From a phage: a stretch of DNA of 64,000 nucleotides. Made by a program: the position numbers and the translations under genes. The first letter of the stretch is position 1. Each line of letters starts with the position of its first letter. The stretch lies in assembly GCA_025829515.1 (NCBI GenBank), contig GCA_025829515.1_4865.1; one strand, given 5' to 3'. The notes beneath the pieces are model-generated. The model saw only the letters and a program-made list of their open reading frames with translations. It searched no databases and had not been told where the DNA came from. This document shows, in pieces, positions 2,350 to 9,336 of this stretch.

Positions 2350-3153
2350 ATGCAACTATTTAATCTATACGGTATGGACAAAAATGACCTGACCGTAGAG
2401 TTTAGTGGTCGATTGACCACCTTGGGGCAACTCCGTGAACGGATTCAAGATTTGCGACCCGTCGCAGACCAAGAAGACGATCATTGGTTAGTGTTGAGCA
2501 ATAGCGGTCGTGCGCAAATGTATTTTCGTGGATGTCGTTCAGGTATTGTTTACTACATCTACGAGTTGCACGTGCTTTCCGAGCCCCTGTTCCACGAGTG
2601 GAAGCGTTTAACGCGACTCCTGGAAGTGCAGATGCTTGATATCACCTGTTTTCCGCATGACACCGAACATGCGGCATTGTACCAACGTCTGGGGTTCGAA
2701 GCTGTAACGAAGCGTGTGGAGATTACTGTCAGTCCGAAATACGGTTTTACGTCAGACCCATCGGTTGTCCCGTTGGAGACATTGTCATTAGAACAAACCC
2801 AAGATGTTTGCTATCTAATGCGACCTACGCTAAAAGACGCAGGAACGCGTGAGATGTTGGGTGAATTAGCAAATGGTTTTGTCTCTGCGTTCGTGGGGCT
2901 GCACGGCCAGAAACCGTTTTCATTAATGCTTTATAAGGAGTTCCCGAAGAGCATCATTACTGAGCAATTCTGCTGCCAAACTTTTGACCCGGTTGCTTAC
3001 TCGGTAGAGTTTCTAAAACACTACCACGCCATTTTGCATTTGGCGGGACAGAAAGGTAAGAAGGTCAACATGGGCGTTGCGATAGAGCACGAGTTTCCTT
3101 CTATCGAAGGGTTAGAGTATCGTGTAATCACGCATCACTACACCCTTGCGTAA
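2350..3153 (+). CDS. hypothetical protein, possibly GNAT-like fold
   Basis: 267-aa ORF; ALYQRLGFEAV segment resembles a GNAT C-terminal motif; weak. Confidence 0.45.
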   Translation: MQLFNLYGMDKNDLTVEFSGRLTTLGQLRERIQDLRPVADQEDDHWLVLSNSGRAQMYFRGCRSGIVYYIYELHVLSEPLFHEWKRLTRLLEVQMLDITCFPHDTEHAALYQRLGFEAVTKRVEITVSPKYGFTSDPSVVPLETLSLEQTQDVCYLMRPTLKDAGTREMLGELANGFVSAFVGLHGQKPFSLMLYKEFPKSIITEQFCCQTFDPVAYSVEFLKHYHAILHLAGQKGKKVNMGVAIEHEFPSIEGLEYRVITHHYTLA

Positions 3154-3162
3154 GGAGAGAAT

Positions 3163-3975
3163 ATGCTGAGAGTTATCGAACGCACGGAGAGGATTCTGGA
3201 CCGAACGTGGTTGGAAGACCGTAAAGCGTTATCGTTGTTAAACGATATCGATCCTTCCACGTTACAAGATGAACGTCGTCTTTACTACCGAATCTTTGAA
3301 GTTTTCAGTCGGGACACAGTTGCGCCCGACGCGATCGTGCTCTGTCTGGACCACGGATACATGTTAGAAGTTATCAACATGGTTCGTGCTTTAGACGCCC
3401 AGTTAACCTCGCTTGCGGATGCTTTACTCCGCTCAGCGGGGTGTAACTACGCGATGCATTTTACTCGTTCGGAAGGGGACGAATATGCTCGCATGGGCTT
3501 TTGTTGCGAAACGATAAACTACCGCAAAATTAATACATCGGTGCCAAGTCACGATGAGGATTTCTGTGGGGATGTCAGTTCGCTGTTCGATAGTAAGAAA
3601 GCGTTCTTGGATTGGGTTAGAATGCTTTACGGTACAAGCTCTATCTACTCAACGCTCGTCATGGGCGGGAGGATGATGTCATGGCGGAGCAGCGATAGTT
3701 ACAAACTGACAGTGCTCTCACATCGTGGACAACGCTGGGTTATTGGTGGATGGTTTACCGCAGAAGGGGTGGTTACCCTAAGCCGTGAGGAGTTCGGACT
3801 GTTGATGCACTGTATCCAGTCTGAATTACCGGTGGGGGATGAATTAGTTTACACTTACCACCAATATACTGGGGGACCAGCCGCAATGTGGTTATTAGAA
3901 AACGGTTGGCTACCCGAAAGTTATGTGTACGGACGTGCCCTGAAAACTACTAATGGAGAAAATAATGCAAATTAA
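3163..3975 (+). CDS. hypothetical protein
   Basis: 270-aa ORF with aaggagag SD. Confidence 0.55.
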   Translation: MLRVIERTERILDRTWLEDRKALSLLNDIDPSTLQDERRLYYRIFEVFSRDTVAPDAIVLCLDHGYMLEVINMVRALDAQLTSLADALLRSAGCNYAMHFTRSEGDEYARMGFCCETINYRKINTSVPSHDEDFCGDVSSLFDSKKAFLDWVRMLYGTSSIYSTLVMGGRMMSWRSSDSYKLTVLSHRGQRWVIGGWFTAEGVVTLSREEFGLLMHCIQSELPVGDELVYTYHQYTGGPAAMWLLENGWLPESYVYGRALKTTNGENNAN

Positions 3976-4243
3976 TCGTACAGTGTCGAAGTCTAAAGAA
4001 GTCGTTTACAACGTTGAGGACGGCGACGTAATGCAGTTCCGTGCCGTTATTGACGAACAGCACGTACTCCAAGTTGTTTATTCGAAAGAAGAGATGACTC
4101 GTGCACATAGTCGCGTGTTGGAAAAGCTCGTCGCGAAAGCCAAACAACGCGACGGCATTAAATCCTACAACGTTATGTACGGTTATCAGTTACGTGAGGT
4201 GGAAGGGGAGCTGTTAATCACCCCTGTTCCGGTAACGGCGTAA
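3965..4243 (+). CDS. hypothetical protein
   Basis: start moved to ATG at 3965 (ggag SD 7 nt upstream); 92 aa. Confidence 0.45.
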   Translation: MQINRTVSKSKEVVYNVEDGDVMQFRAVIDEQHVLQVVYSKEEMTRAHSRVLEKLVAKAKQRDGIKSYNVMYGYQLREVEGELLITPVPVTA

Positions 4244-4283
4244 TTCGCCATTGTATGACCCTTAAACACCGTTGAGGTTAACT

Positions 4284-4766
4284 ATGGATATGATCGAATT
4301 AGGTCAGCTCCCTCAGCACGATTTCGATTTAGGCGTGCGCCATGAGGAAGGGGCCGACGCGAACACACTAATGGCCCGCTACTACGAGCTACTGACCGGT
4401 CAACCGTTGGACGATGAACACATCAACCGTTTTGAAAAACTGTTGGCACAACTCATCACCTCTAACGCAGAACGCATTGGCATGTTGAACGAAATGAACT
4501 TTGCCGATGTAGAGCCGTCTGACGCTCAGAAGATTCTTATCGATGGCCCTGTGCCAAGCGATGAAGTACAAGACCTTCTGGCAGGTATCCGTGCAGGCTT
4601 CGATGAAGCTGCTGAGAAATACGCGGAAGAGCTGGCAGATGTCGATTTGGCTGCGCCGGTTGACCCGAATCCATCTGCAGAGGAGACTGCAGCTGCGAAA
4701 TTGAAACTCGCACGCTTTATCTGTGCTGCTGTCTTGACAGACGACCGTGAAGAAAACCAACTGTAA
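4284..4766 (+). CDS. hypothetical acidic protein
   Basis: track start is TTG; ATG at 4284 has a gagg SD; followed by a terminator. Confidence 0.5.
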   Translation: MDMIELGQLPQHDFDLGVRHEEGADANTLMARYYELLTGQPLDDEHINRFEKLLAQLITSNAERIGMLNEMNFADVEPSDAQKILIDGPVPSDEVQDLLAGIRAGFDEAAEKYAEELADVDLAAPVDPNPSAEETAAAKLKLARFICAAVLTDDREENQL

Positions 4767-4810
4767 GGCCCGCCTCCTTGCCCACGGGTGAGGAGGTCCC
4801 TTTTTATTTA
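4767..4810 (+). terminator. intrinsic terminator
   Basis: cctcc...ggagg hairpin followed by tcccttttta ttt. Confidence 0.6.
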
Positions 4811-4862
4811 CATCAGTCCACTAACTTATGTGAAACAACCCACGTAATGAGGAATTAAGAGA

Positions 4863-5180
4863 ATGTGGTTAAGTGCTATTCATCGTGACCTGCCAAAACG
4901 TGAAGTGACTCTTTCTGTCGATGCGGAACCGATTACCGTTGGTGTCGCTAACTTCGACCGTATGGAAGAAGGGCAGTATGTCGTGGTGGACAACGATGAA
5001 AACGAATTCATGTTATTCCATCCCGAAGTTGATGCGTCTGAAATCCGCGAGGGTTCTATCTTGTTTTCTTGGCAAGACAAAGAAACTAAACAGTGGATGT
5101 GGTGCGTTGCTAACACAACCAATGAAAAAGGTACCGCGTATGCCCCAGGACAGCTTCATGTCGAACCTAAACCCCATTGA
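4863..5180 (+). CDS. hypothetical protein
   Basis: 105-aa ORF with gagg SD. Confidence 0.45.
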   Translation: MWLSAIHRDLPKREVTLSVDAEPITVGVANFDRMEEGQYVVVDNDENEFMLFHPEVDASEIREGSILFSWQDKETKQWMWCVANTTNEKGTAYAPGQLHVEPKPH

Positions 5181-5472
5181 GCCCACACTGACGCACCAGG
5201 AACTGCACGTCCGTTTTATTCGGGCGTTCACACCCCCGTTAGGTGGTGAGGTACACGATCGTTCCGTGGTTGCAGAAGTTAAAGGTATCGGCGAAGAACT
5301 AATGACACTGTCTAATATTGTGACGGGTGTTGAGTTCACGTTACCGTTAAACGTATTTCGGTTTATTCCGCGCGTAAACGAAACGCTGCTCATCGACCGT
5401 GTACATCATCGGATTATGGCGCAGGTACATCCTAGCCGTAAAGAGTATGTGCGCTTAGAGATGATGGTCTAA
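5140..5472 (+). CDS. hypothetical protein
   Basis: trimmed from the 183-aa track ORF to an internal ATG with aaaagg SD; overlaps the upstream gene by about 40 nt. Confidence 0.35.
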   Translation: MPQDSFMSNLNPIEPTLTHQELHVRFIRAFTPPLGGEVHDRSVVAEVKGIGEELMTLSNIVTGVEFTLPLNVFRFIPRVNETLLIDRVHHRIMAQVHPSRKEYVRLEMMV

Positions 5473-5480
5473 CGCACGAC

Positions 5481-5510
5481 TTTTCAGATAGATGTTATTT
5501 TACTGAACCT
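5481..5510 (+). promoter_or_regulatory. conserved intergenic motif copy 1 (TTTCAGATAGATGTTAT-n3-ACTGAACCT)
   Basis: near-identical copies at 13885-13914 and 17652-17682, each just upstream of a gene. Confidence 0.5.
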
Positions 5511-5534
5511 AACTGTAAAGAAAGGAAAAAGTAG

Positions 5535-5840
5535 ATGGCTAAACAATACACAATTGTTAAACGCGCAGGTACGACTCTGCTGTACGTGGAGAAAGGTTGT
5601 GAGAACACTGCAACCGCCAAGAAACTGAACCTGCAAGGGTTTCTGTATCAAGGTCTCCGCGCGGGTTTGACCATCACTTTCAAAGGCTTACCACAGGCGA
5701 AGAATCTGCGCGTCGTGCGTGCAGACGGTGTAGAGCGTGCCTTGGTAGCCGACACCCCGGTTGATACTATCCCTGCCACTAAGAAGGCAGCGAAAGCAAC
5801 CAAGAAAGTCGTCGATAAACGCAAACGCGCTGTCGCTTAA
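5535..5840 (+). CDS. small basic protein with Lys/Ala-rich C-terminal tail; possible nucleic-acid-binding protein
   Basis: 101 aa; aaagaaaggaaaaag SD; C-terminus ATKKAAKATKKVVDKRKRAVA; flanked by the conserved motif and a strong terminator. Confidence 0.6.
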   Translation: MAKQYTIVKRAGTTLLYVEKGCENTATAKKLNLQGFLYQGLRAGLTITFKGLPQAKNLRVVRADGVERALVADTPVDTIPATKKAAKATKKVVDKRKRAVA

Positions 5841-5842
5841 GT

Positions 5843-5888
5843 AGTCCCCTACCTAACTTCGGTTAGGTAGGGCTCTTTTTATTTTTAA
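5843..5888 (+). terminator. intrinsic terminator
   Basis: cccctacctaac-ttcg-gttaggtaggg perfect hairpin followed by ctctttttattttt. Confidence 0.85.
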
Positions 5889-5906
5889 CCCTCTGGGGGA
5901 TATACC

Positions 5907-6359
5907 ATGTTTCAATGTTCAGTCGTCAATGATGCGGAATTGGCCGTGTACAAGCAGCGCACAATCCGGGCGCTGGATGCTGAAAAACCAGTCGATGTTA
6001 AAACGCGTGCAATCATTAGGGCATTTAGCGAATGGCCGAATATCGCAACCGTTTGGGCATTCACGGGAGAAGTTCGCAAAGACGGAGACAAGCTTCGTAC
6101 ACGTAGACACCACAGCTTAACATTTGTGGCAACCGAGGCGGGTCTTAAAGACATTAATCATTTATTAGAAGGATGGCAGCCGCACGAATACGGGAAACGT
6201 TTTCAGTTAAACTTTACTTGGCTGCGTCAAGAAGGCAACGCGAATCTCTGTTATCCAAGCTGGACGTTTAGACTCAACTATCGACCTGACCCAGATGTGA
6301 TGGAAAGAGTGATGGAGCACTGGCTCGCACTCGCAATTTTTACAGAACACAACCATTAA
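5907..6359 (+). CDS. hypothetical protein
   Basis: 150-aa ORF with ggggga SD. Confidence 0.5.
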   Translation: MFQCSVVNDAELAVYKQRTIRALDAEKPVDVKTRAIIRAFSEWPNIATVWAFTGEVRKDGDKLRTRRHHSLTFVATEAGLKDINHLLEGWQPHEYGKRFQLNFTWLRQEGNANLCYPSWTFRLNYRPDPDVMERVMEHWLALAIFTEHNH

Positions 6360-6858: not shown

Positions 6859-7556
6859 TGGCTAAGCAAAAGAAACCCCGTAACAAAAAGTATAACCCGA
6901 AAGTTGCCACAGAACGTACGGCACACACCGTCGCTGAAAACGCTCTGAATCGTATCACGTTTATCGGCAGTTCGATTCGTCGCCTCGGGCCGTACGCGGG
7001 CCGTGGTTTTCACTTTACGGCAAGTCCTCGTATTCGTGCTATCGCCACAGATATGTTAGTCGGTGGGCTGTTCGACCAACCGCGACCATGGCATCTTTGG
7101 GTGATGCACCTCACTGAACTCGACACCGGTGAAATTGTAACAGAAACCGCAGTTGCCACACTCGACGATTATACTTTGGCGGACTTCTGTGAACACGCTG
7201 AGAAGTTAGTTAAATCGTTACGCCCTGAACAGGAAGAGGGGAAGTATTTCGGTTATGCATTTGTGGCCGCCCCGAACGAGCGGTACGACTTCAAAGCGGA
7301 AGAAGACCAACTCATTGAAAACTTCATGCATTCTGGACTACTTGATACGTCGTTACATCTGTCGGAAGAGCAACAGTTCGTTAGTCGTGCAGAAATGGCC
7401 AACCTGCTCGTTGGTTATACTCGGAAGTTTGACGTGACCGTTGAACATGTCAAAGAAGTACCAGAGATTGTGAGCAAGAAAGACGAGGTGGTGCTTCCGG
7501 TTGACGAGGTTGTCAGTAAAGTAGCGACTGCGATAGGGGCAACGGGGGATTACTGA
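6858..7556 (+). CDS. hypothetical protein
   Basis: 232-aa ORF; start overlaps the upstream stop (coupled). Confidence 0.5.
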   Translation: MAKQKKPRNKKYNPKVATERTAHTVAENALNRITFIGSSIRRLGPYAGRGFHFTASPRIRAIATDMLVGGLFDQPRPWHLWVMHLTELDTGEIVTETAVATLDDYTLADFCEHAEKLVKSLRPEQEEGKYFGYAFVAAPNERYDFKAEEDQLIENFMHSGLLDTSLHLSEEQQFVSRAEMANLLVGYTRKFDVTVEHVKEVPEIVSKKDEVVLPVDEVVSKVATAIGATGDY

Positions 7557-7765
7557 TGAATCTACGTTGGCCGATCGTGGCTGCTGTGTTGTTTTGTATT
7601 TATATCGCCATCAGCACCAGTACCCGCACTGCAGAACGTCGCGAGACCGCAACCAGTACGTTCAGAATGTGCATTGACCGCATAGACCCGAACAGCACCA
7701 CTTATCCTGACGCGGTGAATGCGTGCCGTAAAGCAGTTGCTGAGATATTGAAAGAGGAAAATTAA
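7556..7765 (+). CDS. small putative membrane protein
   Basis: 69 aa; hydrophobic N-terminal segment WPIVAAVLFCIYIAIST; start overlaps upstream stop. Confidence 0.4.
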   Translation: MNLRWPIVAAVLFCIYIAISTSTRTAERRETATSTFRMCIDRIDPNSTTYPDAVNACRKAVAEILKEEN

Positions 7766-7992
7766 TGGAAAACCTCACACCGATTGAGATAGTGTCGCCA
7801 TTCGACCGTTACGTATATGGACAAACGCAAGCAAAGAAAATGCTGGCGATTGCGCTACGTAATCGATATCGTGCCAACAAACTCAACGTAGTGGACCGTA
7901 TGTCGGTCCACAAACAGAACCTTTTAATAGAAGGTCCAACAGGCACGGGTAAAATGGCGCTGATGCGTGAAGAAAAACAGAAACAAAAGTGA
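7765..7992 (+). CDS. HslU (ClpY)-like AAA+ ATPase N-terminal fragment, 75 aa
   Basis: TPIEIVSPFDRYVYGQTQAKKMLAIALRNRYRANKL...NLLIEGPTGTGK is collinear with the E. coli HslU N-terminus through Walker A; own aagagga SD; ends in a Lys-rich tail. Confidence 0.7.
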   Translation: MENLTPIEIVSPFDRYVYGQTQAKKMLAIALRNRYRANKLNVVDRMSVHKQNLLIEGPTGTGKMALMREEKQKQK

Positions 7993-8000
7993 GGTAAAGG

Positions 8001-9008
8001 ATGGCGAAGCTCGTTTCGTTTTCAGCAGGGTTGGATTCCACCTGGATAATGTATCAGCTGCTATGCAAAGCACCGGCCAATGAAGCACGACATGTCCGTC
8101 CTGCGTATTTCTCCATGTGGAATGGAGGTAACGCGAACTTCATGGAAATTCTTTGTAGCGTGGCCATTGTTGAACGGTTGATGGATAGACACCATGCACA
8201 AACCGATCATGTTACATGGGCGGTGCTCGGGGAAGAGAACTTCCCGCCTGTCGTTAGCGCTGGATATGCTAACGGCTGGTCGCCTCTGGTTCAGCAGGGC
8301 AATGTTGTTAACGGTCTCGCTAAACTGATGTGTGGTATTACGCGCAAACAGCACCACGCCTATGCAGTTGTTGGTTGGAATAAGCTAGATGCGTTGGAGA
8401 ATAGTCTAGAGCTGGGAGATTGGACATTAGACGAGTACGCTCGCTTAAAGAACCTCTATAGCGAATTGATGTATTTCCAAGATCATGCCGGTCGCGTTCC
8501 ACCGCTTCTAACACCTGCGTGGGATAAAGAGAAACTGGAAATGTGGCAGGAGTTGCCGGAAGATATTCGTAGGTTGGTACAGGTCAGTAACTACAACAAC
8601 TACGAATTCGCGATAGACCGTGAGAATAACGTGCTCATCGTTTATGCCAATCCGTCAGCAAAGTCGCAGAATTATCGTAGTCTTGGTATTACACCGTCAG
8701 TGGGATGGGAGATTAAAATCAACGATGCTTACAGACGGGTATGGTGTTCTGCTCTTGGTAGTGCTATTTCTGCTATGGGTTTGGACGTGCCGGCTTTTGC
8801 TAACTTTAAGGACACGGAAAGAAACCACACGACCTTTACGGTAAGTGAAGATACTGACCGGTTATGTATCACATCGTTTACCGCGGAAGAGTGGTGCGAG
8901 TATGCGCCACATTTTAAAGCGCTTCAGGAGAAAGAAAAAGAGATAGCGAAAAATGCCAAAGCAAGTAAAGCTGTGGACGCTCCAACTGGCGAAGTGGCGG
9001 ATAGCTGA
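8001..9008 (+). CDS. PP-loop-like (adenine nucleotide alpha-hydrolase superfamily) protein, function unknown
   Basis: N-terminal VSFSAGLDST resembles the SGGxDS PP-loop ATP-pyrophosphatase motif; gaggtaaagg SD. Confidence 0.45.
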   Translation: MAKLVSFSAGLDSTWIMYQLLCKAPANEARHVRPAYFSMWNGGNANFMEILCSVAIVERLMDRHHAQTDHVTWAVLGEENFPPVVSAGYANGWSPLVQQGNVVNGLAKLMCGITRKQHHAYAVVGWNKLDALENSLELGDWTLDEYARLKNLYSELMYFQDHAGRVPPLLTPAWDKEKLEMWQELPEDIRRLVQVSNYNNYEFAIDRENNVLIVYANPSAKSQNYRSLGITPSVGWEIKINDAYRRVWCSALGSAISAMGLDVPAFANFKDTERNHTTFTVSEDTDRLCITSFTAEEWCEYAPHFKALQEKEKEIAKNAKASKAVDAPTGEVADS

Positions 9009-9336
9009 AAAACGGAATTTGCCAAAGCTGGATATAACGGTTAAGTCGGGGCTGAAATATTTGGCACCCGACTGGGACTTTCTGATGGACTACAAGAAGT
9101 CTGACAAAGGCCCCGACGCAGAAGCTGCGTATACCAAACGCTACCTGCAGAAACTTAGTCGGTTGTTTGATGAAGACACTGATAAGTTGATAGAGATTCT
9201 CCGCCAGGGCGAGGTCGTACTAATGTGCTATTGCCCACCGGGGAAATTCTGTCATCGCCACTTGCTAGTTTCTTACCTTATTGAAATCGGTGAGTGGTTC
9301 GGTTATGAAGTAATTTACATGGGCGAATTATCGTAA
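8953..9336 (+). CDS. hypothetical protein with CYC...CHR motif (DUF488-like?)
   Basis: 127-aa ORF; motif LMCYCPPGKFCHRHLL; family assignment is from memory and uncertain. Confidence 0.4.
   Translation: MPKQVKLWTLQLAKWRIAEKRNLPKLDITVKSGLKYLAPDWDFLMDYKKSDKGPDAEAAYTKRYLQKLSRLFDEDTDKLIEILRQGEVVLMCYCPPGKFCHRHLLVSYLIEIGEWFGYEVIYMGELS

Follow-up and report, generated by a model that had tools for sequence, protein, structure and literature searches.

The analysed stretch of DNA, hereafter the window, is 64,000 nucleotides long and comes from a Seoulvirus (an SPN3US-like jumbo phage). The region under study is 94–99% identical to Seoulvirus DNA, and the nearest relative is Salmonella phage SPLA1a (98.7% identity over 2.1 kb and 98.3% over 25 kb). 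Two conserved genes, encoding proteins of 69 and 335 aa, bound an interval whose length differs among near-identical phages. The following features were located at this interval in the window:

7556–7765, + strand: conserved 69-aa gene (phrog_28359) bordering the variable locus on its left, from the PHROG profile and synteny
7753–7758, + strand: Shine-Dalgarno (SD) sequence AGAGGA of the ancestral HslU-like ATPase gene, within the 3' end of the 69-aa gene, read from the sequence
7765–7992, + strand: 75-codon chimeric ORF, coordinates including the stop codon, ATG start, 75 aa, very probably a deletion remnant
7765–7967, + strand: segment from codons 1–68 of the 586-aa ATPase gene, from alignment to SPLA3
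7933–7956, + strand: degenerate Walker A motif GPTGTGKM, with ATG at codon 64 where the full-length alleles have ACG (Thr)
7960–7967, + strand: junction with an 8-bp microhomology, TTGATGCG at both parental sites in SPLA3 and CTGATGCG in the window, with 2428 bp missing
7968–7992, + strand: last seven codons (EEKQKQK) and stop codon of the ancestral 110-aa signal-peptide gene, from alignment and tblastn
8001–9008, + strand: conserved 335-aa gene (phrog_8825) on the right of the variable locus, downstream of it in all alleles examined

The last 56 nt of the 335-aa gene are shared, in another frame, with a DUF488-N3a family gene (8953–9336, + strand; Pfam E 7e-12).

The product of the 75-codon ORF (translation of 7765–7992) is MENLTPIEIVSPFDRYVYGQTQAKKMLAIALRNRYRANKLNVVDRMSVHKQNLLIEGPTGTGKMALMREEKQKQK. 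This sequence was found exactly as the first-pass annotation, made from the letters alone, had quoted it for a short gene with its own SD, and an SD motif, AGAGGA, is present at 7753–7758. The gap between AGAGGA and the ATG is 6 nt; the ATG shares bases with the stop codon of the preceding 69-aa gene (TAATG), and the stop codon of the ORF is overlapped by the SD of the 335-aa gene (GAGG, 7991–7994). Residues 1–68 aligned with residues 1–68 of E. coli HslU with no gap and 33 of 68 identical positions (48.5%; phmmer, E 7e-14), in agreement with the collinearity reported for the HslU N-terminus. In established HslU structures, residues 1–68 contribute no more than the N-terminal helices, strand beta-1, and the P-loop; the remaining alpha/beta core and the inter-subunit surfaces lie outside this stretch. 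With bacterial HslU (ClpY, the ATPase subunit of HslUV; TIGR00390, PDB 1G4A), the ORF shares IGQ..AK..AIALRNR and GPTGxGK. It covers positions 1–65 of 441 in the NCBIfam hslU profile TIGR00390 (E 1.7e-15), with a score of 56.9 bits against a family cut-off of 362.45 bits, which places it below the threshold for a functional HslU. The AAA-type matches from a Pfam scan of the ORF were all below their gathering scores. In the phage family phrog_4339 (profile of 552 positions), the ORF matched positions 2–70 with an E-value of 1e-29.

The ORF contains no Walker B, sensor 1, arginine finger, sensor 2, GYVG pore loop, or C-terminal small domain. The rest of the ATPase was also absent elsewhere in the 64-kb window, where a full-length relative used as the tblastn query matched 7765–7983 only; the earlier remark that nothing downstream continues the ATPase thus held. 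A single-sequence AlphaFold model of the 75-aa protein, which is weak evidence, consisted of one long helix with no compact fold (pTM 0.34). Rfam, promoter, and terminator scans of 6.5–9.5 kb gave chance-level matches only, such as an Rfam match to GlmZ on the minus strand with 18.6 bits against a gathering score of 60.

Three close relatives (SPLA3, 1252, and MET_P1_082_240), whose DNA flanking the locus is 94–99% identical to the window, encode an intact 586-aa HslU-like AAA+ ATPase from the same start codon as the remnant, and the sequence upstream of the remnant SD is the one preceding the full-length gene in SPLA3 and 1252. The ORF is therefore short, but it is not the stand-alone gene first described, as its start codon and SD belong to a longer ancestral gene. 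The ATPase opens with MENLTP(V/I)EIVALFDRYVYGQTQAKK...GPTGTGKTALMRVLKTKFGLPVLELDMTAFTESGYVGREV and has a long insert at the I-domain position, followed by Walker B (VVFLDEFDK), the arginine finger (LQGRFPLR), and sensor 2 (GARRL). It matched phrog_4339 from end to end (E 1e-148) and E. coli HslU in two blocks (residues 1–109 and 402–568; E 2.8e-48). Its identity to Salmonella HslU was ~40% over ~48% of its length (the conserved halves), and its larger I-domain insert, roughly residues 110–400, is unrelated to that of HslU. The N-terminus of the remnant equals that of the full-length protein except for A11S, L12P, and T64M, plus a V7I polymorphism. In the full-length proteins, homology to HslU runs past the point at which the remnant departs from them (GKTALMRVLKTKFGLPVLELDMTAFTESGYVGREV, aligned with E. 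coli HslU).

Compared with the phrog_4339 ATPases (SPLA3 WNT47929.1, MET_P1_082_240 'hslU' WFG41614.1, and Huxley gp130), the remnant has the same start codon, SD, and locus, but it keeps 12% of the protein and carries Met in place of Thr in Walker A. Judged by homology and orthologous position, the 75-aa ORF is a fragment or pseudogene of phrog_4339. Full-length homologues were also found in outgroups, with 72% amino acid identity in SPAsTU/STsAS and pEa_SNUABM_29 and ~50% in many Erwinia jumbo phages. The ATPase of Huxley (Machinavirus) occupies the same syntenic position, those of other Erwinia jumbo phages lie at a similar genome coordinate, and in both outgroup loci examined (SPAsTU and Huxley), the ATPase has a homologue of the 335-aa gene downstream. 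Because the outgroups at 50–72% identity all have the full-length gene, the long form is, on this comparison, the ancestral state.

The gene order at the intact loci is the ATPase, a 160-aa gene, and a 110-aa gene, with the 160-aa gene absent from 1252. The 160-aa gene belongs to phrog_7478, annotated as 'head maturation protease' (E 2e-41); the match of this protein to Pfam Peptidase_S80 reached only E 0.038, and a PDB sequence search with it returned no match. The 110-aa gene belongs to phrog_10627, and its product has a signal-peptide-like N-terminus and a C-terminus ending in LMREEKQKQK. The intact modules span 3377–6032 in SPLA3 (L004), 3501–5915 in Huxley (L012), and 3501–6259 in SPAsTU (L013); a phrog_7478 protein of ~150–160 aa follows the unfoldase in intact alleles, and the 110-aa protein is next in SPLA3 and SPAsTU. 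No HslV-like gene was noticed beside the HslU-like unfoldase in the intact alleles. These genes could make up a module of an unfoldase and a protease-like protein. The 160-aa gene occurs as two alleles with ~76% identical DNA, compared with 90–94% in the flanks (L009, L010, L011, and L016 against L004 5157–5703), which points to a probable replacement via recombination at the locus.

The breakpoints were mapped to the base by aligning the window to the SPLA3 locus (L004). The left arm (window 7501–7967) aligned with 3113–3579 at 96.6% identity and the right arm (window 7961–8200) with 6001–6240 at 99.2%, and the two alignments overlap on TGATGCG. Both copies of TTGATGCG lie at LMR codons, one at ATPase codons 66–68 and one shortly before the 110-aa gene ends. 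The window has a net loss of 2428 bp between these two 8-bp direct repeats, and ATPase codons 1–68 now continue, without a change of frame, into the final seven codons and stop codon of the 110-aa gene; the ORF accordingly ends seven codons past the breakpoint. The translation of the SPLA3 110-aa gene ends in AKLMREEKQKQK before its stop codon (in a longer excerpt, ...LNAKLMREEKQKQK), and tblastn with residues 101–110 of this protein matched 7960–7989 at 100%. The Lys-rich tail of the ORF (...LMREEKQKQK) was thus present as reported, because the deletion fused ATPase codons 1–68 to the end of the 110-aa gene, and it is not part of an ATPase. The ORF stops abruptly at the P-loop because the breakpoint lies there, and it has an SD and an HslU-collinear N-terminus because both belong to the ancestral ATPase gene.

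The same junction was found in SPLA1a, JN03, Lh1B, and EC001, and the 75-aa length in these deposited alleles is the same as in the window. It occurs on at least two upstream haplotypes, as the remnant of Lh1B resembles the SPLA3 ATPase and that of EC001 resembles the 1252 ATPase (window 7765–7968 compared with L004, L003, L002, and L007). This distribution would reflect either recurrence at the same 8-bp repeat or spread by recombination.

The Walker A motif, described earlier as intact, proved to be degenerate: GPTGTGKM has Met where the consensus GxxxxGK[ST] requires Thr or Ser after Lys. Neither T59 nor T64 varies among the full-length phage proteins compared, and E. coli HslU has Thr at both positions; changes at these residues occur only in remnant alleles (T64M in the window, T59R in SPLA1a and JN03, and T64A in another allele). 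The EC001 remnant retains GPTGTGKT.

Four deletion alleles were distinguished at the locus:

D1, 2428 bp, junction TTGATGCG: loss of ATPase codons 69–586, the 160-aa gene, and most of the 110-aa gene; in the window, SPLA1a, JN03, Lh1B, and EC001
D2, 1750 bp, junction GCGCTRTT: loss of ATPase codons ~13 to 586; in SPN3US, metagenome contig L015, and, judging by match size, the SPFM series
D3, 472 bp, junction AACCC(C/T)A: loss of the 160-aa gene; in 1252 (ATPase intact) and Proteus phage 7 (also with D2)
D4, 341 bp, junction ATGA at two start codons: loss of the 110-aa gene; in SPLA5c, SEGD1, SaP7, and contig L016 (all also with D2)

D2, D3, and D4 each have a short microhomology at the junction. 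The commonest Seoulvirus allele is D2, in which only ~12 ATPase codons are kept. A metagenome scan returned two contigs, both with deletion alleles other than that of the window (L015 and L016), and an IMG/VR scan anchored on the 335-aa neighbour returned SPN3US itself only. The same 472-bp deletion and junction are present in 1252 (L003), where the ATPase is intact, and in Proteus phage 7 (L008), which carries D2; the deletions have thus been reassorted among lineages. From the patterns of D1–D4, all three genes are individually dispensable in Seoulvirus. Together, the alleles represent four independent microhomology-mediated deletions among phages that are ~95% identical and mark the interval as a hotspot of gene loss.

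The exact protein of the window is deposited as MCV8334779.1, from an E. coli assembly. The D1 ORF is also deposited for vB_EcoM_EC001 (QKN85958.1), Lh1B (UGO35845.1), and SPLA1a (WNT47547.1), and it is present without annotation in JN03; in EC001 and Lh1B, it is labelled 'putative heat shock protein'. When the remnants of SPLA1a, JN03, and EC001 were aligned with the window protein, all three had the same length of 75 aa and 95–97% identity. The remnant falls into two protein clusters, which contain 17 remnant-type variants (~118 contigs) and a single piece of a full-length protein. The most widespread allele is T59R (62 contigs). Other variants carry L4H, Q22P, D44Y, M46T, MS46-47HT, or S11T/P12S; among those with a changed reading frame, several are 77 aa long with altered tails (EEKTETKVR and EEKQKQKVR), and one (P0011) diverges past residue 61.

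Contigs of ~240 kb with this Seoulvirus allele sit inside more than 100 isolate assemblies of Salmonella enterica and E. coli. The longest contig of the 62-contig variant is 241,823 bp; its serovars include Braenderup and Virchow, and other variants came from Typhimurium and Enteritidis. This suggests that clinical or food isolates are often accompanied by the jumbo phage, whether in a carrier state or through contamination.

The frame of the remnant is open in nearly all of the ~118 contigs, which counts against a dead remnant. The pairwise pN/pS of the remnant among four phages was 0.16, compared with 0.04–0.19 for the neighbouring genes; it did not separate the remnant from its neighbours and gave no statistical demonstration of relaxed constraint. 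The value is confounded, as the intact alleles share much of the synonymous variation, which therefore predates or bypasses the deletion. Changes specific to the remnant were ~4 non-synonymous and ~4 synonymous, counts too small to weigh either way.

We conclude that the 75-aa ORF is almost certainly the deletion scar of a full-length phage HslU-like ATPase gene, i.e., an ordinary gene remnant. The ancestor carried the 586-aa HslU-like AAA+ unfoldase gene, the ~160-aa gene, and the 110-aa gene between the 69-aa and 335-aa genes, and illegitimate recombination or replication slippage between the two copies of TTGATGCG removed 2428 bp. The resulting chimera kept the ancestral SD and start codon, together with the ancestral stop codon just upstream of the SD of the 335-aa gene. 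As this layout is kept, the remnant is probably still translated. It cannot be an ATPase, as Walker B, the sensors, the arginine finger, the pore loop, the I domain, and the small domain are missing and the P-loop is damaged. Most likely, the peptide has no function of its own, and it may persist by neutrality, being short and harmless and leaving the translation layout of the operon and the expression of the downstream gene undisturbed.

Related phages thus carry both versions of the gene, intact in SPLA3, 1252, and MET_P1_082_240 and truncated in SPLA1a, JN03, Lh1B, and EC001. The first-pass annotation had named a full-length gene in decay at this locus in relatives as an observation that would speak against its proposal of a small dominant-negative subunit poisoning the host HslUV protease, and such decay is essentially what was found.

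A functional 75-aa peptide that binds or co-assembles with host HslU, or with a co-infecting relative's HslU-like ATPase, and thereby acts as a dominant-negative anti-proteolysis factor, is highly unlikely. Its native SD and start codon, in frame to a stop, make translation probable, and the allele is widespread with a mostly open frame (~118 contigs and 17 protein variants); the pN/pS of 0.16 does not look neutral, but it is confounded by the polymorphism inherited from intact alleles. The identity of 48.5% to E. coli HslU residues 1–68 would fit a mimic, but the full-length parent is as close to the host protein (33/68 for both), and thus there has been no drift towards mimicry. Judged from established HslU structures, the fragment lacks the small domain, every hexamer-interface element, and all but one of the five beta strands in the AAA+ core, and the single-sequence AlphaFold model (one long helix, pTM 0.34) is not an HslU-like fold. 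The remnants vary at T59 and T64, two positions fixed in all functional homologues, and several variants have a different tail. Most Seoulviruses carry D2 with ~12 codons kept; the HslU-like fragment is therefore not needed. No result supported a dominant-negative role of the remnant.

It is likewise very improbable that a widespread Seoulvirus sublineage has kept the chimeric peptide, expressed with the ancestral translation signals, because it interferes with an HslU-type hexamer, either that of host HslUV or that of the full-length ATPase of a competing co-infecting relative. If this were true, a deletion would have given rise to a protease or unfoldase poison. T4 PinA and lambda CIII are phage inhibitors of host ATP-dependent proteases (Lon and FtsH, respectively). 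These small phage proteins that block a host AAA+ protease are of the functional class proposed earlier for the ORF; however, they are dedicated conserved genes, whereas the remnant is a truncated homologue of its proposed target.

The first-pass annotation had offered a pseudogene remnant of a captured hslU as its other explanation. The remnant part was borne out by the intact 586-aa gene at the same start codon and by the mapped breakpoints, but the capture part was not. Recent capture of host hslU, as a fragment or as a whole gene that then decayed, has next to no probability. The best PDB and NCBIfam matches of the ORF are bacterial HslU, and the alignment starts at Met1 of both proteins; however, the 68 aa reach no more than 48.5% identity to E. 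coli HslU, and the full-length protein matches Salmonella HslU at ~40% identity across ~48% of its length and has a larger I-domain insert of unrelated sequence. The ATPase belongs to its own phage family, phrog_4339, which is syntenic in Huxley and reaches ~50% identity in Erwinia jumbo phages; thus, the gene is old in the phage lineage. Recent capture was rejected on these grounds; relative to bacterial HslU, the remnant is truncated at the P-loop and is not derived from the host gene. The reverse direction, with the 75-aa ORF as the original state and a cassette inserted into it to yield the long genes, was likewise rejected as having almost no chance of being correct: both ends of the short ORF are common to all alleles, but the cassette would have to extend the HslU homology seamlessly across the junction and supply all remaining AAA+ motifs, the outgroups at 50–72% identity are all of the long form, and the tail comes from the 3' end of a distinct gene that is conserved in its own right (phrog_10627).

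With the deletion scar as the preferred reading, the ORF of the window is an already deposited truncation allele of a dispensable accessory gene. RAY gp116 is a more distant relative (31.5% identity over ~48% of the query). In the chimallivirus RAY, this HslUV-family gene is accessory rather than core, and its product localises to the phage nucleus (PMC10299810). For annotation, the ORF should be labelled as a truncated phage HslU-like ATPase remnant, and not as a 'heat shock protein' or 'HslVU ATPase subunit'. For jumbo-phage biology, the locus is mildly useful in showing that Seoulvirus can do without the HslU-like unfoldase and its two downstream partners, all of them accessory genes, and natural presence/absence pairs such as SPLA3 and SPLA1a are ready material for studying the function of the phage unfoldase.
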